Positions 1 through 46,651 of a stretch of 64,000 nt of DNA are shown here, one piece after another (the first letter of the stretch is position 1; the number at the start of each line of letters is the position of its first letter). The translations under genes were made by a program, and so were the position numbers. This DNA comes from Candidatus Omnitrophota bacterium (lineage in GTDB: Bacteria > Omnitrophota > Gorgyraeia > 2-01-FULL-45-10), in contig JAPLME010000007.1 in NCBI GenBank assembly GCA_026387175.1, positions 487-64,486 on the forward strand, written 5' to 3'. Below the pieces are notes generated by a model. It worked only from the letters and a program-made list of their open reading frames with translations. It was not told the origin of the DNA and did not search any database.

Positions 1-3000
1 CATCGGCGCGGACGCGGCTGGGGGCGGTATAACCACGGGCGGCACAGGCACGATAACCTTAAGCGGAGTCAATCTTTATACTGGTGCAACCACGATTAAC
101 GCGCTCAGCCATTTGACTTTGGATGGAACGGGCACGATCGCAGCAAGTTCAGGCGTGGCGAACGCAGGCACTCTCACAATTCAAGGGGACAAGGTGGTTC
201 AGAAGATGACAGGCGCTGGCGTAACCGCGCTGGGTGCGAATACCCTGACCATTGGCGATGTCCATAACCTCTCCGGCAACTACACCGGTATAGCAAGCGG
301 CACAGGCGGTATAACTACGGCTGGCACAGGAGTACTAACCCTAAGCGGAGCCAATGATTATACTGGTGCAACCACGATTAACGCGCTCAGCCGTTTGACT
401 TTGGATGGAACGGGCACGATTGAAGGCAGTTCAGGCGTGGCGAACGCAGGCACCCTTACGATTCAAGGGAACAAGACGATTGACTCGATGACCGGCGCCG
501 GCGTAACCACGCTGGGCGCGAATACCCTGACCATTGGCGATGCCACCGGCACTTCCGGCACCTACAGCGGTGTGGCAAGCGGCACAGGCGGTATAACCAA
601 GGCAGGCGCAGGCACGCTAACCCTCTCTGGCGCCAACGACTACACCGGCGTAACCACCTACACAGCCGGCACCGTGAGCGCGAACACTATCGGTAATGGC
701 GGCGCGGCAGGCAGCATCGGCAAAGCCGCGGCAGCGGCCGGGAACCAGGTCCTTAACGGTGGCACTCTATCATATACCGGAAACAATACCACTACGGACC
801 GTGGTTTTACCGTCAATGCCGCTGGCAGCGAGATTGATGTAACGACAGTCGGCCAGACACTCACTATTCAAACAACCGGGATCGTTACAAACGCAGCAGC
901 TGACATTTTGACCATAGGTGGAGCCGGTAATACTGAGATAAAAAGCGCAATCTCCGGTACAGGCGGATTGGCTAAAGATGATGCAGGCACTCTTACTCTA
1001 AGCGGCGTGAACACCTTCACCACCGGTGGGATAGCTCTTAACGCGGGCACGCTGAAGCTCGGTAGCACCACGGCGCTGGGCGGGGCGACTAGCAAGCTCA
1101 CCATTAACGGCGGTACGATTGATAACAGCAACGGCGCCGCTCTCGTAATGGCGAACAACAACCCGGTTGATGTGAAAAGCGACTGGACCTTCACCGGTAC
1201 CAATGATCTCACTTTTGCCGCAGGCGCGTGGACGTTGTATGGTACTGGTACAGTCACGCTTACCACTGCAGGTAAAAACCTGACCGTTGGTGGAATCGTC
1301 GGAGACCTTGGTAATGCCTTTGGCTTGGGTACGGCTGGCGCGGGCACGCTAACCTTGGACAAGGCCAATACTTATACGGGCGCGACCACGATCGGCGCGG
1401 GCAGTACGTTGGCTTTGGACGCAACGGGCACTATTGAAACAAGTTCAGGCGTGGCGAATTCAGGCACCTTTACGACTGCGGCGGCCAAGACGATTCAGTC
1501 GTTGACCGGCGCGGGCGTAACCACGCTGGGAGGCGGCGACTTGACCGTCGGCGATGCCAATAACCGCTCCGGTACCTACAGCGGCGCCATTGGAGACGGT
1601 GGTGGTGCCAGAGGCGTGATCAAGGCCGGCACCGGCACCTGGACGATTTCCGGCGTGAACACTTACACCGGAGCCACAGCAATCAACGCTGGAACATTAG
1701 CGTTAGGAGGCGCTACCACCATTAAAGGCAACATTACGCAGGCTGCCGCCGGCACGCTCGATCTTGGCACCAGCACGTTGACGCTTAATGGAATAGGTGC
1801 GTTGGGTAATTATACGCAGGCCGCCGCTACAACCCTGAATACAACTATCCTGAACGCCACTACGGCGGGTAATATCAATGCCTCAGCCGCAGGCACCGGT
1901 AAAATGACGACACTGGCAGCGTCTGCGCTTAATATTAACGTCGGCTCTGCATACATTCCTAATAATACGACCTGGACGATCCTTGACGGTAAGACAGGAG
2001 CGACAGGCGTTGTCGCGCCTACGACTATTACAACTAATAGTTCTGTCCTCACGTTCACGGCAGCGGCGGCGAACGGCGGCGACGATCTGACTATCACCGC
2101 GAGCCGTGGAACTAACGGTTATCCCGCGCGCGCCTCGAACTCAAATGCAGCAGCGGCAGGAGCGGCGCTTGAAGCGGCGGGCAATGCCGGCGCCACCGGA
2201 GATATGGCGACTGTGCTGGGCACGCTCGACGGCTTATCCGCTTCGCAGGTAAGCGCAGCGCTCAATACGGTTGTCCCGGAGGTCGATGCCGGGGTCATCA
2301 ATACGAGCACGACCGTTCTAAATAACTTCGTCGGGGTCGCTATGGACAGGGTGGAACAAACTCTGAAGGTTGCCAAGGCCGCGGACTCCGCGACCACGGG
2401 TCTCTCAGCGGGAGAGGCGAGTAAAATAAGCGGCGCTTGGGGAAAAGGGTACGGCAGTTATTTGACGCAAGGTACGCGCAATGGTATCGCCGGATATGAA
2501 GCGTGGAATGCCGGCACCGCGCTTGGCGCCGATCACCTCTTCGCGGATCTCGTTACCGTTGGCGTAAGCGGCGGTTACGCGTATGGGAACGTCGACTCGG
2601 ATGTTAATAACGCGAGTACGTATATCAATAGCGCCCAGACCACCGTGTACGGGGGGTATGAAGATAAAAATCTTCCTTTCTTCATCGACGCGGCAGGTTC
2701 CTTCGCATGGAACTGGTATGAAGGCCGGCGCGATATAAATATCGGCGGCGCTATATTAAGGACTGCGAATGCCGCATATGACGGCCAGCAATACGGCGCA
2801 TATTTAGGCGGTGGCTACAGGTTCAATATGACAAAGAATATTGAATTTACGCCTCTCCTGTCGCTTCAGTATAATCACCTTCAGCTGGGGAGTTATACCG
2901 AAACAGAAGCCGGAGCGCTCAATTTAAGCGTCGCGAGCCAGGGCTATGATCAATTACAGTCCGGCCTCGGCGCGCGCATAGCCGCTCCTATAAAGTGTAA

Positions 3001-3265
3001 ATGGGGCACTTTCACTCCGGAAGCTCATGGAAAATGGTTCTATGACTTTATCGGTGATAACATGGCAGTGACATCGAACTTCAACGGCGGCGGTGGGAAC
3101 TTCGGCTCAAACGGCGCTAAACCTGCGCTGAATAGCTTCAATGCCGGAGGTCAGTTGACGTTTAATTTCAAAAACGATATTTCTCTTATAGCGAACTGCG
3201 ATACGGAGATGAAGGACGAGTTCTTTGGTATCTACGGTTCGGCGACGGTCAGGTACAATTTCTAA
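1..3265 (+). CDS. Autotransporter (type Va) outer-membrane protein, 5' end outside the window. The passenger is built from autotransporter-associated beta-strand repeats and is followed by a C-terminal beta-barrel translocator.
   Basis: The frame is open back to position 2 and the upstream sequence continues the repeat. The passenger repeats read 'GTLTLSGANDYTGATTINA..'. The C-terminal ~300 aa carry a classical autotransporter linker and beta-domain (AWGKGYGSY.., alternating aromatic strands) and end in ..RYNF. Confidence 0.8.
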   Translation, partial: IGADAAGGGITTGGTGTITLSGVNLYTGATTINALSHLTLDGTGTIAASSGVANAGTLTIQGDKVVQKMTGAGVTALGANTLTIGDVHNLSGNYTGIASGTGGITTAGTGVLTLSGANDYTGATTINALSRLTLDGTGTIEGSSGVANAGTLTIQGNKTIDSMTGAGVTTLGANTLTIGDATGTSGTYSGVASGTGGITKAGAGTLTLSGANDYTGVTTYTAGTVSANTIGNGGAAGSIGKAAAAAGNQVLNGGTLSYTGNNTTTDRGFTVNAAGSEIDVTTVGQTLTIQTTGIVTNAAADILTIGGAGNTEIKSAISGTGGLAKDDAGTLTLSGVNTFTTGGIALNAGTLKLGSTTALGGATSKLTINGGTIDNSNGAALVMANNNPVDVKSDWTFTGTNDLTFAAGAWTLYGTGTVTLTTAGKNLTVGGIVGDLGNAFGLGTAGAGTLTLDKANTYTGATTIGAGSTLALDATGTIETSSGVANSGTFTTAAAKTIQSLTGAGVTTLGGGDLTVGDANNRSGTYSGAIGDGGGARGVIKAGTGTWTISGVNTYTGATAINAGTLALGGATTIKGNITQAAAGTLDLGTSTLTLNGIGALGNYTQAAATTLNTTILNATTAGNINASAAGTGKMTTLAASALNINVGSAYIPNNTTWTILDGKTGATGVVAPTTITTNSSVLTFTAAAANGGDDLTITASRGTNGYPARASNSNAAAAGAALEAAGNAGATGDMATVLGTLDGLSASQVSAALNTVVPEVDAGVINTSTTVLNNFVGVAMDRVEQTLKVAKAADSATTGLSAGEASKISGAWGKGYGSYLTQGTRNGIAGYEAWNAGTALGADHLFADLVTVGVSGGYAYGNVDSDVNNASTYINSAQTTVYGGYEDKNLPFFIDAAGSFAWNWYEGRRDINIGGAILRTANAAYDGQQYGAYLGGGYRFNMTKNIEFTPLLSLQYNHLQLGSYTETEAGALNLSVASQGYDQLQSGLGARIAAPIKCKWGTFTPEAHGKWFYDFIGDNMAVTSNFNGGGGNFGSNGAKPALNSFNAGGQLTFNFKNDISLIANCDTEMKDEFFGIYGSATVRYNF

Positions 3266-9442: not shown

Positions 9443-10009
9443 ATGAAGGTTATCGGAATAAGCGCCAGCCCCAGAAGATCCGGTAACAGCGAGATCCTTC
9501 TGGATAGGGCTCTCGAGGGCGCCATGTCGGCGGGAGCCGACGTAGAGAAGATCGTGTTAAATGAGCTCGACTTCAAAGCGTGTCAGGAGTGCGGCGGGTG
9601 TGAAAGAAGCGGCGTATGCGTTATCCGTGACGGTATGAGCCATCTTTATAAAGAACTGGATAAGGCCGACGCCATTATTGTATCGTCCCCAATATTCTTC
9701 GCTTCACTAAGCGCTCAGGCAAAAATGATGATAGACCGTTTCCAATGCGCCTGGGTGGCAAAGTATATTTTAAAGAATCGTGCTAAGGCAAAGAAGCGTA
9801 AAGGTATATTCATAAGCGTAGCCGGCTCTTACAGGAAAGATTCTTTTGACAATGCAAAGAGCATAATCAAAGCGTTTTTCGCGACGCTCGACATTGAATA
9901 CGCCGACGAATTATTTTGCGGCGGTATCGAGAAGATGAAAGATATAGATCAGGATGAGAAGGTTCTGAACAGAGCATATACTTTAGGGGTTGGTTTAGTT
10001 AAAATATAA
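9443..10009 (+). CDS. Iron-sulfur flavoprotein (Isf) / NADPH-dependent FMN reductase family
   Basis: Flavodoxin-like N-terminus (VIGISASPRRSGNS) plus the compact Cys motif CQECGGCERSGVC (C-x2-C-x2-C-x5-C) typical of Isf. Confidence 0.7.
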   Translation: MKVIGISASPRRSGNSEILLDRALEGAMSAGADVEKIVLNELDFKACQECGGCERSGVCVIRDGMSHLYKELDKADAIIVSSPIFFASLSAQAKMMIDRFQCAWVAKYILKNRAKAKKRKGIFISVAGSYRKDSFDNAKSIIKAFFATLDIEYADELFCGGIEKMKDIDQDEKVLNRAYTLGVGLVKI

Positions 10010-17812: not shown

Positions 17813-17821
17813 TATCGTTTG

Positions 17822-18142
17822 ATGCGTTTTTTGAACAGGCTGTTATTTTTTATAGGCTGGCTCTTATCGCCGTTTACTACCTGGAACGACATATTTATAA
17901 ATATCCCTTTGGCGTATCTTGCGGCCAGCCTATTTTTTAAAATATTTCCTAACAATTTCGCTCTGCAGGTAATAATTTTTTACTGGCTCAGTAACGGTCT
18001 CGGATTATTATTGATGTACACGACGGGCCGTAACGTATTAAAAGAAAAACGCCTGAGTTTCAGATCGATCCTCAGCACACTCCTAATCTACAGCATTATT
18101 TTATTTCTGCTCGATAAATTTGTTAATCTCCGTCCTGTGTAA
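17822..18142 (+). CDS. Hypothetical small integral membrane protein
   Basis: Three hydrophobic helices. No known motif. Confidence 0.4.
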   Translation: MRFLNRLLFFIGWLLSPFTTWNDIFINIPLAYLAASLFFKIFPNNFALQVIIFYWLSNGLGLLLMYTTGRNVLKEKRLSFRSILSTLLIYSIILFLLDKFVNLRPV

Positions 18143-18192
18143 GGCGAAAAAGCTAACTTTCGTTAGGCCTTAAAAAAGTTTGTATTTAGCTA

Positions 18193-18220
18193 TTGACACT
18201 TTTAAAATCTGTGATATACT
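18193..18220 (+). promoter_or_regulatory. Sigma-70-like promoter: TTGACA, 16-nt spacer, TATACT
   Basis: Read directly. Lies about 215 nt upstream of the first giant GLUG-repeat gene. Confidence 0.55.
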
Positions 18221-18391
18221 CGAACTGTAGCTTCGATAAAGGCAAAGCCGTCGAAAGACGGTGGCGTTCCCTGAAGTGGAGAAGGGGACTGCGGCCTAAG
18301 AGAAAATAGGCCGTAGCAAAGCCAAGGATCTAGAAAATTAACTAGATAGCCTGGTTACCGAAAAGCGGTTTCGGAAACCAGGCTTTTTTAT
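18221..18391 (+). promoter_or_regulatory. Structured leader RNA of about 170 nt, ending in an intrinsic terminator 43 nt before the start codon. Candidate riboswitch or attenuator.
   Basis: Several local hairpins, including ccguc-GAAA-gacgg and cggccu..aggccg. The leader then runs into a 14-bp terminator stem plus U6. Confidence 0.45.
18350..18391 (+). terminator. Rho-independent terminator inside the leader (the attenuator 'OFF' element)
   Basis: Stem cctggttaccgaaa/tttcggaaaccagg (13 of 14 bp paired, loop agcgg), followed by cTTTTTTatt. Confidence 0.7.
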
Positions 18392-18433
18392 TACGGTGGT
18401 AGTGAGGCTTCAATAACCAAAAGGGGGTACTCC

Positions 18434-21391
18434 ATGAACGCCCTGGCGATAACCAAAAAGACCTTATCAGTCCTTCTCATCTGCACTTTTATCACGAGCC
18501 AGGCGGCCTATCCCGTAACAGAAAACACCCAAACTAAAACTACCTACGAACAGAGTGTGCCCGGATCTTCCGTAGAAAAGACAATAAGCGCCGCCGCCGC
18601 TCTTACCTCTATGATAGAGGCCAAGAATGCCCTGATCTCCGCGCCTGTCGTTAGCAACCCCGCGGCACAGCAGATCATCATACACAGTGTATTCGAATTA
18701 CAGAACATCTCACAAAACCTCACCGCACATTATGCTCTCGCCAATGACATCGACGCCTCTATTACTAAAACATGGAACGGCGGATTAGGGTTTAATCCTA
18801 TTGATGGCTTTGCCGGTATATTCGATGGCCAGGGATACACGATCTCCAGCCTATATATAAATAGAGATACGCTAAATTTACTTGGGAGAAGGGATAACAT
18901 AGGACTTTTTGGTAAAACTGCTATTAATGCATGGGAAACCAGAATTATAAACACACATCTCGAGTCTGTTTTCATAACTGCTAATAGCTCTGCCGGAGGG
19001 TTGGTGGGCTTTTTCGCTAGTGGTGTAATCGAAAACTGCTCGGTAACGGGAACGATAAATATGGTGAATAGTAGTAGCGTTGGCGGCGGCCTTGTGGGCT
19101 GGAATGAGGGAGAGATATATAACTCCTCGGCGGAGGTAGCCGTGACCAGCTATAGCGAAGGCGGCGGCCTTGTCGGACAAAATAACGGATTAATTTACGG
19201 CTCTTACGCCGCAGGCATACTCGACGGCGCTTTATATACCGGCGGTCTCGCAGGCCGGAACGATGGGCGGATATATTACTCCACGGCTACGGGATCTGTG
19301 AATTGCTATCAATATGGCGGTGGCCTTGTAGGCTGGAACGAGGGGGAGATATACAGCTCCACGGCAGCGGGAGCCGTGAATGGCTATTATGGCATGGGCG
19401 GCCTCGTAGGCCGGAACAAGGGAGATATATATTACTCCATGGCTACGGGAGATGTAAACAAGAACTATTACGGTTCTTTCGATGCCGGCGGTCTTGTAGG
19501 CTGGAACGATGGAGAGATATACAGCTCCACGGCTGCTGGAACCGTTCGTGGTCGTTACAGCCCCGGTGGCTTCGTAGGGTCTAACAACGGGCAGATATAC
19601 TATTCCGCGGCAACGGGAACTGTGGAAGGATATGAGGGTGCTGGCGGTTTCGCGGGATTAAACGGTAATATCGGTACGATCTCAGGCTGTTACGCCACAG
19701 GTATCGTCACCAGTACTTCTGGTACCGATTACAGTACCAAGCGCACTGGTGGCTTTGTTGGTATGAACTATCGTTCCGGCATAACCGGTATAACCAATTC
19801 ATATGCGTCTAAGTTATATAACGTCCTCGACCTACAGCTTATTAAGTACAGGCCGACCGGTACATTTACAGTAATGCAGGACATCGATGCCATCGATACA
19901 AAAAACTGGAACGGGGGGCAGGGGTTCGAGTCGATCGCGAACTTCAATGGGATTTTCGACGGTAAGAACAAGGTCATCTCCAACCTCTATATAAACAGGC
20001 CCACCGAGAATAGTATAGGGCTTTTCGGATGGAATATGGGCACCATCATAAATACAGCCCTCAGCTGGGCAAATGTAAATGGTAGTTGCTACATTGGGGC
20101 GCTTGTAGGCATGAATTATGGCCAGATATCTAACTCTTGGGCAAACGGCGTGATAAAAGGAGCCTATTACCTTGGCGGCCTCGTTGGCATGAATTATGGC
20201 CAAATATGTAACTCCTGGACAAGCGGAACAATAAACGGCTATTACGGCGTAGGCGGCCTCGTCGGATACAATTACGGACTAATCCGGAGTTCTAATGCAT
20301 CGACCACTGTAAATGGCACTTACTATGTAGGCGGCCTCGCCGGCATGAACTATGCCCAGATATATAGCTCCACAGCAATAGGGATAATAAGCGGCTATTA
20401 CGGTATCGGCGGCCTCGCCGGATATAACTATGGTTTGATCTGGGGTTCTACCGCGTCGCCCACTGTAAATGGCACTTACTATGTCGGCGGCCTCGCCGGC
20501 ATGAGCTACGGCCAAATATATAACTCCACGGCGGTAGCGACGGTGAACGGCTATTACGGCGTCGGCGGCCTCGCAGGATATAATTATGGCTTAATCTGGG
20601 GTTCTTACGCCGCATGTGCTGTAAAAGGTACTTACTATGTCGGCGGCCTCGCCGGCATGAACTACAGCCAGATATATAATTCAACGACATGGGGAGTAAT
20701 AAACGGTTATTCCGGCATCGGTGGACTTGTCGGATATAACTACGGATTGATATATGGTTCCAGCGCATACGCCAATGTCACAGGCACCTGCTATGTCGGC
20801 GGCCTCGCCGGCATGAATTATGGCCAGATATATAACTCCTGGGCCAGTGGAATAGTAAATGGCTGGAACTACATCGGCGGGCTTGTCGGGGTAAATAGCG
20901 GCACTATCTCGGGATCCTCGGCACGGGGAGCCGTAACAGGCTATTACGGTACAGGCGGGCTTTGTGGATTGAATTACAGTGTTATCTCATCCTGTTATGC
21001 CACAGGCGCTGTCGCAGGCACTTACTATGCCGGCGGCCTTACCGGCATGAACTATGGCCAGATATCTTACTCTACCGCATATGGAGCCGTGAACGGCTTT
21101 TACGGTATCGGCGGCCTGGTCGGATATAACGCCGGCGTGATCTTAAACTCTTACGCCGTAGGCGCAGTTTCAGGAACTTACGATGTCGGCGGTCTTGTCG
21201 GTTTGAATATGTATACCGGCAAGATATATAATTCCGCGGCAACAGGAGGAGTAAATGGCTATGCCTATGTCGGCGGCCTCGTAGGCGCCAACTATGGCTT
21301 AATATCGAAGTGCTGGGCTATTGGACGTGTATTTGGTTCATACTATGTTGGTCAGTTAGTCGGTTATAACGCAGGGACCATAATATATTGA
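18434..21391 (+). CDS. Giant secreted GLUG-motif beta-solenoid repeat protein, first gene of the pair (985 aa)
   Basis: Signal peptide (..FITSQA/AYP). A ~110-aa N-terminal module (ANDIDASITKTWNGGLGFNPIDGFAGIFDG.GYTIS.LYINR) that recurs internally. More than 25 tandem ~26-aa repeats YVGGL(V/A)G.NYG.I.NS.A.G.V.G, which I read as the GLUG motif (PF07581-like). A conserved C-terminal tail. Confidence 0.75.
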   Translation: MNALAITKKTLSVLLICTFITSQAAYPVTENTQTKTTYEQSVPGSSVEKTISAAAALTSMIEAKNALISAPVVSNPAAQQIIIHSVFELQNISQNLTAHYALANDIDASITKTWNGGLGFNPIDGFAGIFDGQGYTISSLYINRDTLNLLGRRDNIGLFGKTAINAWETRIINTHLESVFITANSSAGGLVGFFASGVIENCSVTGTINMVNSSSVGGGLVGWNEGEIYNSSAEVAVTSYSEGGGLVGQNNGLIYGSYAAGILDGALYTGGLAGRNDGRIYYSTATGSVNCYQYGGGLVGWNEGEIYSSTAAGAVNGYYGMGGLVGRNKGDIYYSMATGDVNKNYYGSFDAGGLVGWNDGEIYSSTAAGTVRGRYSPGGFVGSNNGQIYYSAATGTVEGYEGAGGFAGLNGNIGTISGCYATGIVTSTSGTDYSTKRTGGFVGMNYRSGITGITNSYASKLYNVLDLQLIKYRPTGTFTVMQDIDAIDTKNWNGGQGFESIANFNGIFDGKNKVISNLYINRPTENSIGLFGWNMGTIINTALSWANVNGSCYIGALVGMNYGQISNSWANGVIKGAYYLGGLVGMNYGQICNSWTSGTINGYYGVGGLVGYNYGLIRSSNASTTVNGTYYVGGLAGMNYAQIYSSTAIGIISGYYGIGGLAGYNYGLIWGSTASPTVNGTYYVGGLAGMSYGQIYNSTAVATVNGYYGVGGLAGYNYGLIWGSYAACAVKGTYYVGGLAGMNYSQIYNSTTWGVINGYSGIGGLVGYNYGLIYGSSAYANVTGTCYVGGLAGMNYGQIYNSWASGIVNGWNYIGGLVGVNSGTISGSSARGAVTGYYGTGGLCGLNYSVISSCYATGAVAGTYYAGGLTGMNYGQISYSTAYGAVNGFYGIGGLVGYNAGVILNSYAVGAVSGTYDVGGLVGLNMYTGKIYNSAATGGVNGYAYVGGLVGANYGLISKCWAIGRVFGSYYVGQLVGYNAGTIIY

Positions 21392-21442
21392 AGAGCAATA
21401 TGATAGGGTAGGCAATTTTCAATAACGATAGGGAGGTGTCCC

Positions 21443-24400
21443 ATGAACACCCTGGCCGTAATGAAGAAAACAGTATCGGTATTTCTCATATGCACTTTTA
21501 TCACGAGCCAGGCGGCCTACCCTGTATTAGAAAACACCCAAACTAACACATCCTACGAACAGAGTGTGCCCGGAACCTCCGTAGAAAAGACATTAAGCAC
21601 TACAGCTGCTCTTACCTCTATGATAGATGCCAAGAACGCTCTCCTGGGGCCGACGCCTGTGGCCAGTAACCCTGCTGCGCAATAGGTTGCCAGTACTACC
21701 ACCGTTCAACCCACTATCGTTATACACAGCGTATTCGAACTGCAAAATATTTCACAGAACCTCACCGCGCATTATACCCTCGCCAATGACATTGATGCTT
21801 CTATCACTAACACATGGAATGGTGGTCTAGGATTCAACCCTATAGACAATTTTGCCGGTATCTTCGATGGCGGTGGATATACCATCTCCAACCTCTATAT
21901 AAATAGGCCCAACGAAGACTTTATAGGGTTATTCGGTAGTACGGTCATAAGTAAATGGGATACCAGGATAATGAATGTGCGGCTCGAATCGGTTTCTATA
22001 ACCGGATTAAATGCTGTAAGCGGTCTTTGCGGATATAATGCAGGGACAATCTTAGCTTCTTATGTCACTGGGTCTGTTATTGGCTATACCGCTGCGGGGG
22101 GGCTGGTAGGAATAAATGATGGCAAAATAGATAATTGCCAAGTGACTGGAACAGTAAGTGGCCGTCCCGGTGAAACTTCTGGTATCGGCGGTCTTGTAGG
22201 TGAAAACTACGGCACGATCTCAAACTCACAAACGGGTGGGACTGTGGAAGGGACTTTAGGTAATAAAGCCCTTTGTGCTGGTGGCCTTGTCGGATTTAAT
22301 GAAGGTATAATTTCAACTTCTTATTCCACGAGTAATGTTGGCGGAAGTGACTTTCTCGGCGGATTCGTAGGTATAAATGGCGGTAAAATATATAATTCCT
22401 CTGCAATGGGAACAGTAATTGGCCCGCACTCTGAAGGTATAGGTGGATTTGCTGGTGGAAATTGGGGAGAGATCTTTAGTTCACGGGCAAGCGGAGCCGT
22501 GAACGGATATGGAGATGTCGGCGGCCTGTGCGGCGGAGTCGCGATAGGTGGGATGGTTTTCGATTCTTACGCTACAGGTATTGTTACAGGTGTTGAAGTT
22601 GTCGGTGGTCTCGCAGGCATAAGTTATGGAAATGTAACTAATTCCAGGGCAACTGGAACAATAAGCGGTAAGACATGTATTGGCGGTCTCATAGGTAGCA
22701 ATATTGGCTTGATATCGGAATCTTGGGCGAGTGGCGTTGTAAGTGGCGACTGGACGATTATCGGCGGCCTGTGCGGGTACAATGGTGATGGCGGTACAAT
22801 TAAAGCCTCTTATGCTAAAGGAAGCGTCACTTGTAATGACACTTATAACTATTATACCAGTAGCGATGATGTTGGCGGATTGGTGGGTGATAATTTTGGC
22901 ACAATTTCAGATTCTTGGGCAGCTGGTACGGTAAAAGGTGCTGAAGGTGTTGGCGGTCTATGCGGGTATACCGGTGGTATAATATCCGCCTCATATTCTT
23001 TAGGCAACGTTATCGGTAAATCTAAAGTCGGTGGGTTTTCCGGTGCTACCTCTGGGGACATATCTAACTCTTGGGCGACAGGAGCAGTGACTGGTGGCAA
23101 CAGTACCGGCGGGTTCTCGGGTTTAAATTTCGGTTCAGTATCCGATTCCTGGGCAAGCGGAGTTGTGAAGGGGTCTTCATATGTAGGTGGTTTTGTGGGT
23201 AGTAATGGTTATGAAGGCACGATCTCAAACTCCTGGGCAAGCGGAGCTGTGGATGGAGTTTCATATGTTGGCGGTTTATGTGGATACAATGTTTACGGCA
23301 TGATAGCGTCCTCTTACGCCTTAGGCAACATCACTGGAACCGACCACGTAGGCGGACTTGTAGGCATGAATATTAGCAAGATATATAACTCCTGGACAAG
23401 CGGAGCTGTGAATGGATCTTTATATGTTGGCGGCATAGCTGGATATAATATGAATTACGACATAGGTGGCATAATTTTATCGACTGGCATAATCTCAGGC
23501 TCTTGTGCCACAGGCGTTGTCACCGGCACCAACTTTGTCGGCGGCCTTGTCGGCAAAAACGATAAATCCGGCATAACCGGTATTACCAATTCCTATGCAT
23601 TGAACTTGTATAACGTCCTCGACCTCCAGCTTATGAAGTACAAGCTGGACGGCACATTTACGGTGATGGGTGACATCGACGCCTCCGACACCAAAAACTG
23701 GAATGGGGGAAAGGGGTTCGAGTCGATCGCAAACTTTGCGGGTATTTTCGACGGCAAGAACAAGGTCATCTCCAACCTCTATATAAATAGGCCTACTGAG
23801 ACCAATATAGGATTCTTCGGCAGTACAGCTATAGGTCCGTGGGAAGTCAAGATCATGAATACGCGGCTTGAGTCGGTTTCTGTGACTGGTAATGGTTCCG
23901 TTGGTGGTCTTGTTGGCTGTTTGTCAGCAAATGGCACAATAGAGCGCTCTTTGGTAACGGGAACTATAAACGGTCTCGGCTACTATATAGGCGGCCTTGT
24001 TGGTGGCAACTTTGAAGGAACCATTCGACAGTCATTTGCATCCGCGACAGTAACTGCCCCCGGCCTTGTTGGCGGTTTAGTTGGTATGAATACCGGAGAT
24101 ATTTATGATTCATATTCGACCTCCGATGTCAGCGGCAATTATTGGGCTGGCGGACTTGTCGGATTTAACAATGCCCAGTGGCAATATGCATATGGCCCAC
24201 ACGGTACGCGCATCCCTTATTTGGCATATGCCGGTAATGTTTACCGCAGCTATTCTACGGGCAGAGTTACTGGTTCTGACATTTATAATGGCGGGCTTAT
24301 AGGGTGCTCATGGGGTGGTACTATCTCCGACTCATACTGGAATATGAATACTTCCGGCATGAGTACAAGCGGTGGTGGCATGGGGAAGACCACAGCTCAG

Positions 24401-26866
24401 ATGATGGACGCCTCGACGTTTACGGGATGGGATATTTCATATAATTCCGGGCACACGTGGATCATGGCTGGGTATCCGCATCTGCAGTGGGAGTGGACCG
24501 ACAAGATAACCAACGCCTCCCAGCTCCAGATGGTGACGCTCAATACTAGCGCTAACTATACCATCGCTAATAACATCGATGCCTTCGCCACTAAAGGATG
24601 GAATGGCGGGTTGGGTTTTAACCCTATCGATGATTTTGCGGGCATTTTTGATGGCAAGAACAAGGTCATCTCCAACCTCTATATAAATAGGCCTAGTGAG
24701 TACTATGTAGGCCTTTTTGGCAGCATAGGTACAGGTTCGCAGGAAGCCAGGATTACGAATACAAGGCTCGAGTCGGTTTCTATAACCGGCGATAGTGATG
24801 TGGGCGGCCTCGTCGGTAGTCTATCAAATAAAGGCGTGATTGAGAATTGCTCCGTAACCGGAACGGTAAAAGGCTATAATTACACTATAGGTGGACTGGT
24901 CGGTTATAATGGTATTTACGGAACTATCCTGCAGTCATTCACGTCCGCGATAGTAAGCGCTGTTTATGGTTATGGCTACATAGTGGGCGGTCTTGTGGGC
25001 ATGAATGTCGGTAATATTTATAATTCATACTCGACATCCGCTGTAAACAATGGTTATAAATATACCGGCGGACTTGTAGGTTCCAATGCCGGTAATATTT
25101 ATAATTCCTGGGCAACAGGGACGGTAAGCAGCAATATCAGTAGTAATGTCACCGGCAATATCAGCAGTAGCGATGGTGCTGGTGGACTTGTGGGCGCGAA
25201 CTCCGGAGGAATATACGGTTCCTGGGCAAGCGGAGCAGTAATAGGAGGCGCATATGGATCTTCGCATCTCGGCGGCCTGATCTCGGCCTCGTATGCGATA
25301 GGTAGTATTATAGGGCGTAACGCTTTCCGTATCGGCGGCCTTGTAGGAGAGAACCAGGGCAAAATATATAATTCCTGGGCAAGCGGAGCTGTGAACAGTG
25401 TATATAGCTATGCCGGAGGTCTCGTCGGATACAATGCAGCTAATGGTTTGATATCGGCTTCTTATGCCATAGGTAATGTCACGGCCAGCTCATCTATCGG
25501 CGGCCTCGCAGGTTTTAACGACAACGGCACTATCTCGGACTCATGGGCAAGCGGAACTATCGCTGGAGCTAGCAATATAGGCGGCCTAGTAGGAGATAAT
25601 ACAGGAACGATTTCTAACTCTTATGCTAAAGGGAGCCTTAAGAATGGCTGTGTTGCCGGCGGACTTGTCGGTGAAAACAAGGGCTCCGGCAAAATATATA
25701 ACTCTTGGGCCACCGGAGCTGTGGATGGGAGCTCATGTGCCGGCGGCCTTGTGGGGCTTAACAACATCGGAGCCATGATTTCGAACTCATGGGCAAGCGG
25801 CGCCATAAAGGGATATGCGTATTATTCTTCAGGCCTCGGCGGCCTGGTCGGGACCAACGCCGGTATAATTTCGGCCTCGTATGCTACAGGTAGTGTTATC
25901 GGTGCGCTCAATGCAGTTCGTCTCGGCGGCCTTGTAGGAAATAACTGCGGCAAAATATATAGCTCATGGGCGAGAGGAGCCATAACCGGCGCATATACCT
26001 ATGCCGGTGGATTAGTCGGATATAACGAAGTTAATAGTTTGATTTCATACTGTTATGCGCTAGGCGCTGTTACCGGCACCTACTTTGCCGGCGGACTTGT
26101 AGGCCAGAACCGCGGCACGATCTTGAGTTCCCGGGCAAACGGCGTTGTAAATGGACAATCACTTGCCGGCGGCCTCGTTGGAGATAATTATGGCGTAATT
26201 TCCGCCTCTTATGCCACAGGCAGTGTCACCAGTACTGGTGCCGACATCGGCGGACTTGTAGGCCAGAACCGCGGCACGATCTTGAGTTCCTGGGCAAGCG
26301 GAGCCGTGAAGGGGAGATCTGAAGTCGGCGGCCTCGTCGGATGGAATGACGGACTGATCTCGGCCTCGTATGCTTTGGGCAATGTTATTGGCTCTGCTAT
26401 TCTTGGCGGCCTTGTAGGCGACAATTATTATTCCGGCACGATCTCGAATTCATGGGCCGGGGGAGCCGTAACCGGGGATACAAATGTTCTATCTTTTCAA
26501 TCCTTTGCCGGCGGATTGGTGGGAAATAATCATGGCTTGATCTCAACCTCCTGCGCCACCGGTAATGTTACCACAGCCTCTTCCTGGATCGGCGGGCTTG
26601 TGGGTATAAATTACGGCAAAATATATAATTCCTGGGCGTCGGGAATAGTAAAAGGATATGATTTCGTTGGCGGGCTCACAGGTTTTAATAATAACACGAT
26701 CTCTAATTCCTGGGCGAGGGGAACTGTAAGCGGGCATTACTACGTCGGCGGCCTGGTGGGCGCCAACTACGGCCTGATATACAAGTGCCGGGCATTTGGC
26801 CGCGTATTCGGTTCACGTTATGTAGGTTGGCTAGTCGGTTATAACGCTGGGACCATAATATACTAG
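21443..26866 (+). pseudogene. Second giant GLUG-repeat protein, interrupted by one in-frame TAG at 21683-21685. As a single frame it would encode about 1807 aa.
   Basis: ORFs 21443..21685 and 21971..26866 share a frame, and I translated 21686..21970 with no further stop. The N-terminal 80 codons are highly similar to the 18434 paralog, including its signal peptide. The ORF-track alternative is a 1631-aa product from the internal ATG at 21971, which would lack a signal peptide. Confidence 0.6.
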
Positions 26867-26914
26867 AGGCAGTAACCGCATTTGCCGGGCCTCCACTCCC
26901 GGCAGATGTATTAT

Positions 26915-26960
26915 CCCCATGTCGATTGACGCTGTCGGCATGGGGATTTTTTTGTTTTTG
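26915..26960 (+). terminator. Rho-independent terminator after the giant gene pair
   Basis: Stem ccccatg/catgggg followed by TTTTTTTGTTTTTGTTTT. A second short hairpin gccggg/cccggc lies just upstream (26884-26903). Confidence 0.7.
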
Positions 26961-26967
26961 TTTTAAT

Positions 26968-26996
26968 TTGACTATCAACTTCTCCTGTGGTATATA
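26968..26996 (+). promoter_or_regulatory. Sigma-70-like promoter: TTGACT, 17-nt spacer, extended -10 TGgTATATA
   Basis: Read directly. Lies about 60 nt upstream of the DUF134 gene. Confidence 0.5.
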
Positions 26997-27055
26997 TGGG
27001 TATACACTCATAAAATAAGCTGTGGATAGATTTTGTAAAATGGGGGTTTAATTTT

Positions 27056-27385
27056 ATGCCGATGGGAAAGGATAGCGAAAAACCGGTAAAAAAAGGCCGG
27101 CCTATCAAGGCCAGGATAGTGCATAGGGAGCCGGGGACAAAACAATTTAGCCCTCGCGGCAGGCGAGGGAGGCCGGGCTATAACGCTCTGAAGCACGAGG
27201 AGTTGGAGGCTATAAGATTGGCCGATTTTACAGGCTTGAAACAGGCCGAGGCTGCCGAGCAGATGAACATAAGCCAGCAGACGTTTTCCAGGGTCTTGAG
27301 ATCCGGCCGGAAATGCCTGGCGGAGGCCATTGTATTGGGCCATATAATAAAGGTCGATGGGGGAGACTTCAAGCTTGAAAAATAA
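27056..27385 (+). CDS. DUF134 / UPF0251-family predicted DNA-binding protein
   Basis: Basic N-terminus, then ..ALKHEELEAIRLADFTGLKQAEAAEQMNISQQTFSRVL.. This matches the sigma-70 region-4-like HTH signature of COG1342/DUF134. Confidence 0.65.
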   Translation: MPMGKDSEKPVKKGRPIKARIVHREPGTKQFSPRGRRGRPGYNALKHEELEAIRLADFTGLKQAEAAEQMNISQQTFSRVLRSGRKCLAEAIVLGHIIKVDGGDFKLEK

Positions 27386-27451: not shown

Positions 27452-28315
27452 ATGGCTAAAGGGTTAAGAACAAGATTGAACCAGGAAGAGTTGCGCAGGC
27501 TATATCTTGTAGAGAAAAAATCTCTCGAGGATATCGCGCGGCTACATGGTGCATCCAGGGTTGCCGTGTGGAAGTATTGTAATGCCGAGGGCTTGACGAG
27601 GCGCACCAGGTCGGCCGCCAGATTGGAAGCCCAGAAAAAAGGAAAAGTTCCCCAGGGCTTCTTCGAAATAAATGATAATTTTTTCAGTAATTGGTCTCCG
27701 GAAATGGCGTATGTTTTGGGATTAATCGCCACCGATGGTTGCGTTTCTAAATCCGGTACCGTGTCGCTCTGTATAAACGATAAAGATCTATTAGAAAAAG
27801 TAAGACTGGTTATGGATTCCGAGCATAAGATATGCCGGTCAAAGTATCAAGAAGGGTTATATTCTTTTCATTTTGCAAGGCCCCGGTTAGTTAAGGACTT
27901 GGCAGCGCTTGGTATTCTGCCCAGGAAGAGCCTGAATATTAAGTTTCCGGCAGTTCCGGATGCTTTTTTGATTGATTTTGTCAGAGGAGTTTTTGATGGT
28001 GACGGCTCCGTGTATTTTGAAAAACGAAGCGAACGCTATCCTTTAAGAACGACATTTGTCAGCAGCTCGCAAGAGTTCATTGAAAAACTGGAGATCGTTC
28101 TGCGGCAAATGGGGTTACCTGAACGTGTAATACACAGGCAAACTACGAAAAACGGATTACATTTTAAGATCAGATATAGTCATAAAGATAGCGCGAAACT
28201 GTTTCATTTGATGTACAATGACACTGCCAATTCCTTGTTTTTGGGGCGTAAATATAATAAATTTTTGGATGGTTTTCAGAAAGAAAATAGCGGAGCTGAA
28301 TATAATGGAAAATGA
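27452..28315 (+). CDS. Free-standing LAGLIDADG-family endonuclease-like protein (two LAGLIDADG motifs) with an N-terminal HTH extension
   Basis: The N-terminal ~65 aa form an HTH (SLEDIARLHGASRVAVWKYC). Motif 1 is YVLGLIATDGCVS and motif 2 is FVRGVFDGDGSVY, both keeping the acidic residue. The ~110-aa spacing is typical of single-chain LAGLIDADG enzymes. Confidence 0.65.
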   Translation: MAKGLRTRLNQEELRRLYLVEKKSLEDIARLHGASRVAVWKYCNAEGLTRRTRSAARLEAQKKGKVPQGFFEINDNFFSNWSPEMAYVLGLIATDGCVSKSGTVSLCINDKDLLEKVRLVMDSEHKICRSKYQEGLYSFHFARPRLVKDLAALGILPRKSLNIKFPAVPDAFLIDFVRGVFDGDGSVYFEKRSERYPLRTTFVSSSQEFIEKLEIVLRQMGLPERVIHRQTTKNGLHFKIRYSHKDSAKLFHLMYNDTANSLFLGRKYNKFLDGFQKENSGAEYNGK

Positions 28316-37193: not shown

Positions 37194-38414
37194 TTAAAGG
37201 CTTATTATCGAGTCGAACGTGCCGAAAGAGTTCTGTTCGCGCTCCTTATTCTGAGAATCCGATATCCATTCGCCGTCGATAATGAATTTGTATTTATGCC
37301 TGCCTGCGGTTAATCCCAGCTTCTTTTCCCATCTGCCGTTATCAAGCCTCGAGAGACGGCAGTCTTCGGTGATCTTCCAGTTATTGAAATCACCGACAAC
37401 GTATATCTCCTTTGCGCTCGGCGCGTCTACGTTAAAGAGTATATCCCTCGGAGAGGTCGTCGACTCTTCAATATTATTGGTAACTCCTCTGGGCAAGTTC
37501 ATGACCGGCGCGGCGCTTTCGCGCGCGACGTCACTTACCGTTTCTTCTATTCTTGAGCCGGATGATGGCAGGACGGCTTCGGCACTCCGGGCGGTCTCTG
37601 TAGCCGCCGTCGGCGATACGGCGTTCAACGCCTTTTCGAATTCAAGGGCTCCATCCGCCCTAAGCATCTCCTGAGCCAAGGCCATATAATCCTTCGCGCC
37701 GATAGAGTCCTTATTGAACCGGGTAATACATACCCCTTTGGCGGCGGCTTTTTTCAGGTCTACATTCATTCTTATCACGGTCGATAGTAACTGGTCCTTA
37801 AAGAACGCTTTTATCTCGTTATACATGACCTCAGAGTATTTTGTCCTCCTGTCATAGAGAGTGGCGAGCGCGTTTACCTGAGGCGAATGGAATATCTTTA
37901 TCTTTATCAGTTCCAGCATACCAAGAAGCTTTCCGACGCCCATCAAAGAGAGCGCGCTCATGTCTATCGGAACTATTACCTGGTCGCAAGCGCGTAATGC
38001 GTTAAATGTCAAGAACCCCAGGCTCGGCGGGCAGTCTATGACCATATAATCGTAGTCCAGATGGCTCATCGTCAGCGCCTGGTGCAATTTTGATACCGCG
38101 TCTTCCTTGTCCTTTAATTCCTGTTCAAGGGTGCTTAATAGTATATTCGCGGGCACTATATCCAGATTAGGAGAAACGTTGACTATGCAATCTTTTATGG
38201 GGCGGTTCTTTTCCGGATTATCCGTCAGGACGTTGTAGACAGAGCGGTCCATGCTCTGATTCGTCCGGTTGAGGCTGAAGCTCGCATGAGCCTGAGGGTC
38301 GAGATCCACCACCAGGGTCTTTTTACCCGTCTCCGCAAGTGCGCCTGCGAGATTTATGGCCGTCGTGGTCTTACCGCAACCGCCCTTTTGATTGGCTATT
38401 GCTATTTTCTTCAT
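37194..38414 (-). CDS. ParA/MinD-family ATPase fused to a C-terminal CBM48 / AMPK-beta-type glycogen-binding domain
   Basis: Deviant Walker A KGGCGKTT near the N-terminus, then a ParA-like fold to about aa 250. A Ser/Ala/Thr-rich linker follows. C-terminal IYVVGDFNNWK..HKYKFIIDGEWISD..NSFGTFDSIISL. Confidence 0.75.
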   Translation of the reverse strand: MKKIAIANQKGGCGKTTTAINLAGALAETGKKTLVVDLDPQAHASFSLNRTNQSMDRSVYNVLTDNPEKNRPIKDCIVNVSPNLDIVPANILLSTLEQELKDKEDAVSKLHQALTMSHLDYDYMVIDCPPSLGFLTFNALRACDQVIVPIDMSALSLMGVGKLLGMLELIKIKIFHSPQVNALATLYDRRTKYSEVMYNEIKAFFKDQLLSTVIRMNVDLKKAAAKGVCITRFNKDSIGAKDYMALAQEMLRADGALEFEKALNAVSPTAATETARSAEAVLPSSGSRIEETVSDVARESAAPVMNLPRGVTNNIEESTTSPRDILFNVDAPSAKEIYVVGDFNNWKITEDCRLSRLDNGRWEKKLGLTAGRHKYKFIIDGEWISDSQNKEREQNSFGTFDSIISL

Positions 38415-43667: not shown

Positions 43668-45077
43668 TTACGCTTTCTTCATTCCGGCGCACCTCGTCTT
43701 TTCAAGGGCCTTCTTGGACGGAGGCCGGCATATCGTCGTAGGATAGTTTCCGGTGAAGCATGCGGTGCAGAACTCTTCTTTGGGCAGAGTCATCGAGCTA
43801 AGCATGCCCTCAAGAGATATAAATTTTAAGCTGTCGACCCCTATGAACTCTCTTATCTCTTCGACGGAGTGGCTCGACGCGATCAGCTCTTTTTTGGTCG
43901 GGAAATCTATTCCGTAAAAACATGGTGAGATAAGCGGCGGACAGCTCACTCTCATATGTATCTCTTTGGCGCCAGACGCCCGCAGCGCCCTGACCCTGCC
44001 TCTGGAGGTCGTGCCCCGCACGATGGAGTCCTCCACTATGACTATCCTCTTACCTTTCAGGGCGTCTTTTACGGGGTTCAACTTGACCTTCACCTTGAAA
44101 TCCCTTATGAGCTGGCTTGGCTGGATGAAGGTCCTGCCTATATAATGGTTCCTGACGAAAGCTATTTCCAGCGGCAGCTTGGATTCCTCGGCAAATCCGA
44201 GCGCCGCGCATGTGCCGGAATCGGGAATGGGCATTACCATGTCCGCATTGGCGGGATGCTCTCTAGCTAGCGTCTTGCCGAGGTTCTTCCTCGCAAGGTA
44301 TACGCTCTGGGTGAATATGTTGGAATCCGGCCGTGAGAAGTAAATGTATTCAAATATGCAGAATGCGTGCTTTTTGGATTCGGGCTGTTTCAGGGATCTT
44401 ATGCCGTTCTTGTCGATTATTACGATCTCCCCCGGCTCGACATCCCTTACGTAGGATGCCTCGACCATGTCCAGCGCGCATGTCTCGCTCGCGACGATAT
44501 ACGCGTCGCCCATCTTTCCTATGCAAAGCGGCCTGAATCCGTGAGGGTCGCGCATCGCGTAGATCGCGTCATTTATCATTATCACGAACGAAAACGCGCC
44601 CTCGAGCCTGTCCATTATCGGCAATAGTTTCCCCGAGTAATTATTCTGGTGGTCCTTCACCAGGAGATGCAGTATAAGTTCCGAGTCCATCGTGGTCTGT
44701 AATATGGAGCCGGCGTCTTCGAGCTCATTTCTCAAGGCGACCGAATTTGTGAGGTTGCCGTTATGGGCGACGGCTATGAAACCTTTTTTATGGTTGATCA
44801 AGAGCGGCTGGACGTTCTTTGCCGTCGAGGAGCCTGTGGTGGAATAGCGGACGTGCCCGATCGCGAGATGGCCTTTAAGCTTCTTGAGATTTTCCTCTTT
44901 GAAGACATTGCCGACCAGCCCCTGCCCCTTATGCATATATATCTTCTTCTTGTCGAAGCTTACGATGCCGGTCGATTCTTCGCCGCGGTGCTGCAGCGCG
45001 TAGAGGGCCAGGTAGGCAAGCTGCGCGGCGTTCTTATGCCCGTATATCCCGACCACACCGCAATAATCTTTCATCAT
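43668..45077 (-). CDS. purF: Amidophosphoribosyltransferase
   Basis: Ntn Cys in [13 protein letters not shown]. PRTase motif ([13 protein letters not shown]). C-terminal Cys cluster. Confidence 0.9.
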
Positions 45078-46651
45078 GATTTGAGCTCTTTATGATATTC
45101 CTGCAGGCTCTTTACGGAAACATTTGGTTTTTTTATCATATGTTCAATTCCGTTCACGGAAGCTTGCGCTCCGGAAACTGTAGTGATAAGAGGCACATTG
45201 TAAAGCGTAGCGTGTGAACGTATCTTCACCTCATCCGCCTTAGTTACTTTGCCGGAAGGAGTGTTGATGATCAGATCCACCTTTCCGTCTTTCATCAGGT
45301 CGAGCACATTGGGGCGGCCCTCATTGAGTTTCGGCAGGACCTGCACGTCGACATCATTACTCTTCAGCGCGTCCGCTGTGCCGGATGTCGCCATGATATT
45401 AAATCCAAGGTCCTCCAGCTTCTTCGCGACGAATACGATATTGCGCTTATCCTGGTTCTTGACGCTTATGAATACGTTCCCTTTTATCGGGAGCCTCTGC
45501 CCCGCGGCGATCTGGCTCTTGGCGTATGCGGCGCCGAAGGTGGCGTCTATGCCCATCACCTCGCCGGTAGATTTCATCTCAGGGCCCAGTATCGCGTCTA
45601 CCCCCGGGAATTTTATGAAAGGAAATACCGATTCTTTTACCGCGACGCACCCTACCTTCTTTTCTTTGGTGAAGCCGAGTTCCTTCAGGCTCTTGCCGAG
45701 CATTACTTTTGTCGCGAGTTTTGCCAGCGGCGCACCTATGGCTTTACTTACGAAAGGGATCGTCCTGGAGGCTCTCGGGTTCACCTCAAGCACATATACG
45801 ATATTGTTTTTGACGGCGTATTGCACGTTCATCAGACCCTTGACATTCAATTCCATCGCCATCGCGAACGTATTCTTTCTTATGGTTTCCAGGATGTCTT
45901 TACCCAGGGTGTGAGGCGGAATGACCATAGCGCTGTCGCCGGAATGGATGCCTGCCTCTTCTATATGTTCCAGTATTCCGCCTATGACGCAAATTTCGCC
46001 GTCGGCTATGGCATCGACGTCTACCTCGATGGCATCCTCGAGAAATTTATCGATAAGTATCGGATGTTCGGGAGACGCCTCCACCGCCTTCGCCATGTAA
46101 TCGGCGAGGCTCTTCTCGTCGTACACTATCTCCATCGCGCGTCCGCCCAACACAAAAGACGGCCTTACTACTACAGGATAGCCTATGCGCCCGGCCACCT
46201 CTTGCGCCTCGTCAAATGAAGTGGCTGTTCCATTGTCCGGCTGGATCAGCTTCAGCTTCTTCAGCATCAGCTGGAACAATTTTCTGTCCTCAGCCATGCT
46301 GATCGACTCGGGGCTAGTGCCCAGTATCTTAAGCCCTTTACTGGAAAGAGCGTTTGAGATATTGAGCGGCGTCTGGCCCCCGAATTGCACTATTGCCCCT
46401 ATGGGGTCTTCTATGGCCACTATATTCATTACGTCTTCTACCGTGAGCGGCTCGAAGTAAAGCCTGTCCGATGTGTCATAATCCGTTGAGACCGTTTCGG
46501 GGTTGCAGTTGATCATTATGCTCTCGAAGCCTTCTTCCCGAAGGGCATAAGAAGCATGACAGCAGCAGTAATCAAATTCGATACCCTGGCCTATTCGGTT
46601 AGGGCCGCCGCCAAGTATAAGAACCTTCTTATTATCGTTCTTTTTAAGCAT
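45074..46651 (-). CDS. carB: Carbamoyl-phosphate synthase large subunit, C-terminal half (second ATP-grasp plus MGS-like domain)
   Basis: Starts at the second CPSase repeat (KVLILGGGPNRIGQGIEFDYCC) and ends with an MGS-like allosteric domain. Complemented by the N-terminal half at 54195..55862. Confidence 0.8.
   Translation of the reverse strand: MLKKNDNKKVLILGGGPNRIGQGIEFDYCCCHASYALREEGFESIMINCNPETVSTDYDTSDRLYFEPLTVEDVMNIVAIEDPIGAIVQFGGQTPLNISNALSSKGLKILGTSPESISMAEDRKLFQLMLKKLKLIQPDNGTATSFDEAQEVAGRIGYPVVVRPSFVLGGRAMEIVYDEKSLADYMAKAVEASPEHPILIDKFLEDAIEVDVDAIADGEICVIGGILEHIEEAGIHSGDSAMVIPPHTLGKDILETIRKNTFAMAMELNVKGLMNVQYAVKNNIVYVLEVNPRASRTIPFVSKAIGAPLAKLATKVMLGKSLKELGFTKEKKVGCVAVKESVFPFIKFPGVDAILGPEMKSTGEVMGIDATFGAAYAKSQIAAGQRLPIKGNVFISVKNQDKRNIVFVAKKLEDLGFNIMATSGTADALKSNDVDVQVLPKLNEGRPNVLDLMKDGKVDLIINTPSGKVTKADEVKIRSHATLYNVPLITTVSGAQASVNGIEHMIKKPNVSVKSLQEYHKELKS

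Follow-up and report, generated by a model that had tools for sequence, protein, structure and literature searches.

The described proteins closest to those considered here are the M26 IgA1 proteases of Streptococcus pneumoniae (6XJA/7JGJ) and Gemella haemolysans (7UVK) and BACOVA_03286 from Bacteroides ovatus (3N6Z), all of them GLUG (PF07581) proteins, with an N-terminal beta-helix domain in M26. On the regulatory side, the type IV pili of Clostridioides difficile and gbpA (Vc1) of Vibrio cholerae are attachment factors under riboswitches for cyclic di-GMP (c-di-GMP), and the ON switches of C. difficile are class II aptamers with a sortase-anchored collagen-binding protein as cargo. For the C. 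difficile adhesin CD2831, c-di-GMP acts through a riboswitch as a positive regulator (PMC6447587). The Omnitrophota are uncultivated, ultra-small and suspected of host dependence; their large surface proteins are poorly understood, and large proteins of the phylum have been proposed as host-attachment adhesins (PMC10066038). In a 64,000-nucleotide (nt) stretch of an Omnitrophota genome (contig JAPLME010000007.1 of GCA_026387175.1; this whole stretch is called the window), a predicted c-di-GMP-I riboswitch precedes two tandem GLUG genes, the second of which is interrupted by a nonsense codon. The riboswitch-GLUG unit is an accessory, mosaic cassette in a variable slot, and we read it with moderate confidence as a c-di-GMP-induced operon for Sec-exported GLUG beta-helix surface proteins, most likely adhesins, of an Omnitrophota-related diderm.

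The locus would share with CD2831 the regulatory logic of a c-di-GMP-sensing leader placed before a surface attachment factor, with ligand favouring expression (PMC6447587), but its putative aptamer belongs to class I and has an unusual branched first arm, its cargo is a GLUG beta-helix and its phylum is uncultivated. In contrast to the M26 enzymes and BACOVA_03286, the window proteins possess no M26 metalloprotease domain, G5 or LPXTG anchor, their solenoids, of 10-17 coils per unit and two to three units per protein, are far longer and also more regular, and their host is an Omnitrophota-type diderm. From the TpsA/FHA-type and autotransporter adhesins (EtpA, Ag43, TibA, Vag8, Hbp) they differ in the absence of a two-partner secretion (TPS) domain, ESPR and beta-barrel, with no TpsB nearby. 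Literature searches found no link between GLUG proteins and riboswitches, the Omnitrophota papers searched made no mention of a riboswitch or c-di-GMP, and queries for GLUG with beta-helix gave no result. The GLUG-riboswitch association and the branched aptamer are modestly new, while the part families and the regulatory logic are already known: the proteins themselves are ordinary, if exceptionally regular, members of a very large family whose closest representative carries a standard NCBI name.

The putative riboswitch leader and its predicted switch

An earlier sequence-only reading placed both genes in one transcription unit behind a single regulated leader and ahead of a strong terminator. 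Promoter, structured leader and closing terminator were all found (Table 1), and the leader, which that reading had not named, matches the c-di-GMP-I family RF01051 with 39.8 bits (gathering threshold 35 bits) and is followed by an intrinsic terminator; the orthologous leader at L080, a syntenic locus in a related Omnitrophota genome, scores 41.9 bits. The promoter agrees with the sigma-70 consensus at 11 of 12 positions and has a TG before the -10 element, both hexamers being identical in L080. The 51-nt gap between the genes and their separate ribosome-binding sites (RBSs) were likewise as proposed. No terminator was found between gene 1 and gene 2, and the hairpin that closes the unit is kept 3' of the GLUG genes in L080 and in a further relative, L081.

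The core motifs of the aptamer (AAAGGCAAA, GCAAAGCC and AGCC) are canonical, and the first G of GGCAAA, taken with the GCAAAGCC and AGC motifs, fits the c-di-GMP-I consensus rather than the GGC variant, whose own model reaches 38.1 bits where its gathering score is 59. In the aptamer, the first arm has a 64-nt insert that folds as three hairpins in place of the usual single one. The type 1 architecture, in which a GNRA tetraloop docks into its receptor, was not found: the first of the three hairpins keeps the GNRA loop (GAAA/GAGA), but on the second arm, which is short, the covariance-model alignment shows a deletion of the consensus CUAAG/UAUG tetraloop-receptor positions. Comparison of the window and L080 leaders, two sequences only, shows that each of the seven substitutions located in stems preserves base pairing and that the tetraloop stays GNRA; two of the changes are compensatory, one in hairpin 3 (C-G to U-A) and one in P3 (A-U to G-C). 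The two extra hairpins (window 18266-18314 (+); L080 about 9868-9911), which lie within the first arm and are conserved with compensatory changes in two genomes, the tetraloop-receptor positions of the other arm being absent, may represent an alternative tertiary solution.

The terminator of the expression platform (AGCCUGGUUaCCGAAA...UUUCGGaAACCAGGCU followed by U6) has a 5' arm that is the same sequence as the 3' strands of P3 and P1, and it is kept in L080 with a U-A to U-G change. Folded alone, the aptamer forms P1, P3 and the three hairpins between them; once the terminator sequence is included, the terminator takes over in the minimum-free-energy fold, the full leader giving z = -6.6. 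Since the 5' arm of the terminator competes with the P3 and P1 strands, ligand is predicted to prevent termination, and from the sequence we infer both a response to c-di-GMP and the ON direction of the switch.

In the mechanism that we propose, the strong promoter would fire constitutively and the nascent leader would fold as a c-di-GMP-I aptamer. Without ligand the terminator hairpin would take the 3' strands of P3 and P1 and transcription would end before gene 1; with c-di-GMP bound, these strands would be kept in the aptamer, no terminator would form and RNA polymerase would read both genes as far as the closing terminator. The proteins would leave via Sec, with cleavage probably after Ala24, and the mature form would consist of a flexible leader of ~55 residues followed by rigid three-sided right-handed beta-solenoid rods with one GLUG repeat per coil. 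For gene 1 these would be two rods, of about 10 and 16-17 coils, with a 30-residue linker between them, and their Tyr/Asn/Ser-rich faces would be offered for binding.

GLUG solenoids and their probable export

The 26-residue repeat seen in both genes is present at the DNA level as a period of 78 nt with super-periods of 156 and 312 nt (Tandem Repeats Finder). Gene 1, which is open throughout as first read, encodes ~26 GG[LFI]xG cores, spaced by exactly 26 residues in 20 of 26 intervals, and gene 2 ~47-50. Their identification as GLUG was borne out by Pfam, with PF07581 matching at E values of 4.3e-64 and 2.5e-87 for genes 1 and 2 respectively (209 bits over 8 scored stretches and 281.9 bits over 9, for a gathering score of 20.5 bits), and scans of both proteins against Pfam and NCBIfam returned nothing but Glug above threshold. 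The AlphaFold2 model of gene 1, computed from a 27-sequence alignment, agrees with the beta-helix that had been suggested: each 26-residue repeat contributes three short strands, forming in the model one coil of a three-sided solenoid, at a mean predicted local distance difference test score (pLDDT) of 88. Scores of ~95-98 are reached over residues 80-427 and 460-985, which correspond to beta-solenoids 1 and 2, while the segments below 50 include residues 22-54, 66-77 and 428-457; the layout is completed by a putative signal peptide (residues 1-24), a flexible lineage-specific leader (residues 25-78) and the linker (residues 428-457). Foldseek comparison of the model concurs, finding a beta-helix fold as in 3N6Z and the IgA1-protease N-domain; a phmmer search of the PDB with the window protein sequence gave no match.

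The comparison with IgA1 proteases made in the sequence-only reading holds for the GLUG motif and the beta-helix and fails for membership of the M26 protease family, the catalytic domain being absent. No peptidase domain with HExxH was found, and the sole M26 signal, a partial Peptidase_M26_N match lying over a GLUG coil, scores 17.1 bits against a threshold of 27.7; an identity as IgA1 protease was rejected on these grounds. Nor is the ~110-residue module that was taken as a conserved N-terminus confined to that position. Gene 1 has two copies of its pattern (..ANDIDASxTKxWNGGLGFNPIxxFAGIFDGxGxxISNLYINR..) and gene 2 has three, the internal ones at residue 492 in the former and at residues 753 and 1053 in the latter. 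When these five copies were combined in a profile, it matched, among 1.84 billion representatives of 50%-identity clusters, 51,276 at E<=1e-3 and 24,294 at E<=1e-10; it also matched, at 35-46% identity, loci from dozens of phyla, both bacterial and archaeal. This ubiquity identifies the module as the generic head of a GLUG unit rather than a special N-terminal module. The gene 2 remainder, with about 47 repeats, reads as three head-plus-GLUG units, one of which ends in a canonical YW..TSG..GKTT..YPxLxW tail (residue 1011).

What is lineage-specific is instead the first 85 residues, comprising the putative signal peptide and ENTQTKTTYEQSVPG...ALTSMIEAKNAL. Among 266 GLUG proteins and all loci examined, this leader was found only in the two window genes (69% identical to each other) and in the two closest homologues, P0034 and P0151, the leader of P0151 being 90% identical. 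A word-indexed search of a 5.8-billion-protein set with the N-terminal 179 residues gave no match, a false negative given that P0151, with its 90% identical leader, is in the same database; short queries can produce such false negatives in searches of this type. Read by eye, the N-terminus (MNALAITKK-LSVLLICTFI-TSQA/AY) has a positive, KK-containing n-region, a hydrophobic core of 11 residues, small residues at -3 and -1 and a signal peptidase I-like site (SQA/A), with no lipobox; AlphaFold places a helix at gene 1 residues 2-24. These features suggest Sec export, probably with cleavage after Ala24.

The absence of a dedicated secretion partner, remarked upon from the sequence, was upheld: no TPS, type I secretion system (T1SS) or beta-barrel partner adjoins the genes or occurs elsewhere in the 64 kb. 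In the two proteins themselves, no TPS domain (PF05860), ESPR, beta-barrel (PF03797), type IX secretion system (T9SS) Por_Secre_tail (PF18962) or RTX/T1SS signal was detected. The neighbours of the cassette encode PAC2, DUF748, flippase, DUF7980, DUF134 and LAGLIDADG proteins, and as relatives that lack the cassette have kept its flanking genes, these are no dedicated partners. Of the 120 best homologues, 15 have a TPS domain and a small number have T9SS or dockerin modules; the two orthologues carry none of these. A type II secretion system (T2SS)-type route, or a role of the conserved 85-residue leader in export, would be guesses. The presence of LpxA and of an autotransporter in the window indicates a diderm host. 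The autotransporter itself (window 113-3262 (+)), which has PATR repeats and its own C-terminal beta-domain, is unrelated to the GLUG genes; its region has a GC content of 0.55-0.57 compared with ~0.48 in the rest of the window, and its open reading frame (ORF) may begin upstream of the window.

A variable slot and an interrupted second gene

The closest proteins are P0034 (42% identity, full coverage) and the metagenomic protein P0151 (44% identity). P0034 is annotated at NCBI as a 'GLUG motif-containing protein' of a Candidatus Omnitrophota metagenome-assembled genome (GCA_043808115.1), and its contig is locus L080. The exact gene 1 protein matched no record, and GTDB genomes searched with gene 1 peptides gave no close relative. 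Both homologues belong to orthologous cassettes in the same slot, with the same 85-residue leader, C-terminal coils and terminator, and in L080 with the promoter and riboswitch as well; their overall identity to the window proteins is only 42-44%, and neither has the TAG codon described below. Synteny between L080 and the window extends over >20 kb: both have FMN reductase, Gly-zipper proteins, FAD oxidase, SNase, PAC2, DUF748, flippase and DUF7980 in that order, next the GLUG gene, and after it DUF134, M50, PHO4 and PhoU. The flanking proteins are 75-81% identical, and this synteny points to a related Omnitrophota-type diderm as the source of the window. In L080 the slot holds the same promoter, a c-di-GMP-I match with the same insert, the same terminator logic and one GLUG gene of 1265 residues.

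Other relatives fill the slot differently (Table 1). L081 has a tandem GLUG pair (two or more genes) as in the window, followed by an AbiEii insertion and then DUF134, while the slot is empty in the metagenome loci L083 and L084, where only 149 and 162 nt separate DUF7980 from the DUF134 gene next to it. The CHASE2-GGDEF gene in the slot of L085 means that a relative encodes a predicted c-di-GMP synthase. None of seven metagenome loci with the upstream DUF7980 gene has a c-di-GMP-I match, their slots being empty or differently filled. The slot resembles a hot spot at which surface and signalling genes are inserted. Within the cassette, paralogues and orthologues are 80-88% identical at the DNA level in three places only, namely the RBS plus leader, an internal junction plus head, and the final ~120 nt together with the terminator; their repeat arrays are different. 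Such mosaicism suggests that copies have recombined with one another, and the conserved ends and junction set against divergent arrays, together with the presence or absence of the cassette, argue for rapid recombination, gain and loss, as is typical for binding proteins exposed at the surface. An origin as a mobile element was considered and set aside, as no flanking repeats or integrase were seen, just the conserved cassette ends.

Two further observations concern the 3' flank. Between DUF134 and the HypA gene there is a free-standing LAGLIDADG_3 homing-endonuclease-like ORF of 287 residues (window 27452-28315 (+)); L080 lacks it, so that it counts as a second insertion within this variable neighbourhood. 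All relatives have a conserved palindromic motif (TGGGTATACACTCAT in the window, ATGAGTATATACTCAT in L083) upstream of DUF134, probably the operator or promoter of the putative DNA-binding DUF134 protein.

The proposal of a tandem pair of giant secreted proteins applies to gene 1, which is intact, and not to gene 2, which had been read as an intact ORF of about 1807 residues. Codon 81 of gene 2 is an in-frame TAG, so that as sequenced the gene encodes an 80-residue peptide; the ORF list splits it accordingly into an 80-residue ORF and one of 1631 residues that begins at ATG 21971, the first possible start. The TAG is the sole lesion in 1807 codons. The aligned codon is CAG (Gln) in gene 1 and in the L080 and L081 orthologues, which identifies a single C-to-T transition. 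Recoding was rejected: TAG is an ordinary stop in the window, ending 8 of 52 long ORFs including gene 2 at its own end, the orthologous codon is CAG, and in the 64 kb no tRNA gene was found and no suppressor tRNA or recoding signal was seen. On the reading that we prefer, gene 2 has undergone a recent CAG-to-TAG nonsense mutation, and only gene 1 can yield a full-length product in this genome.

Competing explanations and further features of the window

Several points weigh against a c-di-GMP-induced adhesin operon. The surface location and the function as adhesin (or S-layer-like fibre) are matters of inference: we know of no GLUG domain with a demonstrated adhesin function of its own, GLUG in the IgA1 proteases is a non-catalytic domain, and no outer-membrane route or anchor was found among TPS, T9SS, T1SS, autotransporter, lipobox and sorting signals, so that surface exposure is assumed. 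The RF01051 score lies only 4.8 bits above threshold, and the atypical 64-nt branched insert and absent tetraloop-receptor positions mean that, judged from the RNA sequence, ligand binding is not assured. Only two homologous copies of the riboswitch were found. A crude regular-expression screen of 79 distant GLUG loci gave no GEMM-like motif bar one spurious minus-strand match (L032), which makes the riboswitch-GLUG link look lineage-specific, and an exact-pattern metagenome scan for the long-insert variant returned nothing. With gene 2 interrupted and the slot empty in some relatives, the locus could moreover be decaying.

This last possibility, in its full form that gene 2 is a pseudogene and the whole cassette is being lost without current function, draws on the TAG where relatives have CAG and on slots that are empty in L083 and L084 or hold other cargo in L082 and L085. 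We nevertheless judge it quite unlikely, because gene 1 is intact, promoter, riboswitch, RBS and terminator are all preserved, and the regulatory region is 86% identical to that of L080 with changes that keep pairing; a single lesion in 1807 codons, despite frameshift-prone repeats, would make any inactivation very recent. The opposite view, that the TAG is no true loss and both proteins are made, whether through an error in sequencing or assembly, an on/off allele that is polymorphic in the population or leakiness of the stop, gains from the openness of the other 1726 codons, the intact RBS and leader of gene 2 and the change being one transition. It seems to us unlikely all the same, given the normal use of TAG as a stop in the window, at the end of gene 2 itself among others, and the lack there of a suppressor tRNA or recoding signal.

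Where the proteins act is a separate matter. Periplasmic proteins, or a structural envelope or S-layer-like lattice, would suit rigid, repetitive rods that have a Sec signal peptide (as read by eye) and no identifiable signal for outer-membrane translocation or anchoring, but such a core envelope component would hardly be accessory and hypervariable among close relatives; c-di-GMP control fits conditional attachment factors, and homologues from elsewhere come as fusions with TPS, T9SS, dockerin and further modules for extracellular display. To this alternative we give the least credence. Secreted or surface-bound enzymes or lectins acting on glycans, of the polysaccharide lyase, glycosidase or depolymerase type, in place of passive adhesins are very improbable too, as matches to such enzymes, at 5-12% identity, stem from the generic pectin-lyase fold. 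The domain scans give GLUG only, the repeats are too regular, in their 26-residue spacing, for active-site loops and clefts, and the flippase is conserved in L080 and lies outside the cassette. Attachment proteins under c-di-GMP control remain the reading that we prefer.

A bolder version of that reading, which we hold to be unlikely, would make the leader a distinct c-di-GMP-I sub-class in which the branched domain replaces the tetraloop/receptor contact, and which gates a recombining adhesin cassette for attachment of Omnitrophota nanobacteria to partner cells, the CAG/TAG site of gene 2 being a population on/off allele. If true, no earlier case would have connected the sensing of a second messenger with attachment to a host in an uncultivated and putatively host-dependent phylum. 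A predicted c-di-GMP ON switch before an accessory GLUG gene offers a concrete, testable cue for when such proteins are made, and the branched-arm aptamer is a compact RNA for biochemical testing. The GLUG domain, with its >51,000 clusters, is functionally almost uncharacterized, and gene 1, regulated and with a single domain type, provides a clean model for binding by GLUG rods.

Table 1. Coordinates of the cassette, its flanks and the corresponding slot in relatives (window positions unless a locus is named)
Feature	Position	Strand	Remarks
Accessory cassette, whole	18143-26985	+	~8.8 kb; between conserved DUF7980 membrane-protein gene and DUF134 gene
DUF7980 membrane-protein gene	17819-18142		5' flank of cassette
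Sigma-70-type promoter	18193-18220	+	TTGACA, 16 nt, extended -10 TGnTATACT
Putative c-di-GMP-I (GEMM-I) riboswitch aptamer	18231-18362	+	RF01051 match
Expression-platform intrinsic terminator	18348-18390	+	AGCCUGGUUaCCGAAA / UUUCGGaAACCAGGCU then U6
RBS of gene 1	18421-18427		AAGGGGG
GLUG gene 1	18434-21391	+	Intact, 985 residues
Intergenic spacer	21392-21442		51 nt
RBS of gene 2	21430-21436	+	AGGGAGG, inside the spacer
GLUG gene 2, 5' fragment	21443-21685	+	Putative signal peptide and leader, 80 codons, closed by premature TAG
In-frame TAG nonsense codon, gene 2 codon 81	21683-21685	+	
GLUG gene 2, remainder	21686-26866	+	1726 codons without further stop
Intrinsic terminator closing the unit	26913-26957	+	14-bp stem and T-run at 26913-26947
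Palindromic motif	about 26996-27020; L083 about 440-470; L084 about 980-1010		
DUF134 gene	27056-27385		3' flank of cassette
Slot between DUF7980 and DUF134, L083 and L084	L083 375-523; L084 900-1061		No cargo
Slot, L082	about 2830-3100		Small Phd/YefM-like ORF, judged by eye
Slot, L085	5830-8011	-	CHASE2-GGDEF diguanylate cyclase and N_methyl pilin-like gene

Elsewhere in the window, a ParA/MinD-type P-loop ATPase is fused to a C-terminal AMPK1_CBM/CBM48 glycogen-binding module (37197-38414 (-)), an unusual combination that might serve to position glycogen granules. The large subunit of carbamoyl-phosphate synthase is seemingly encoded as two separate halves (54198-55862 (-) and 45077-46651 (-)), separated by ~8 kb in which genes for purine and GMP biosynthesis lie. 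A bacterial GH3 (acyl-acid amido synthetase) homologue with all three GH3 domains is found within a housekeeping gene cluster (52512-54176 (-)).

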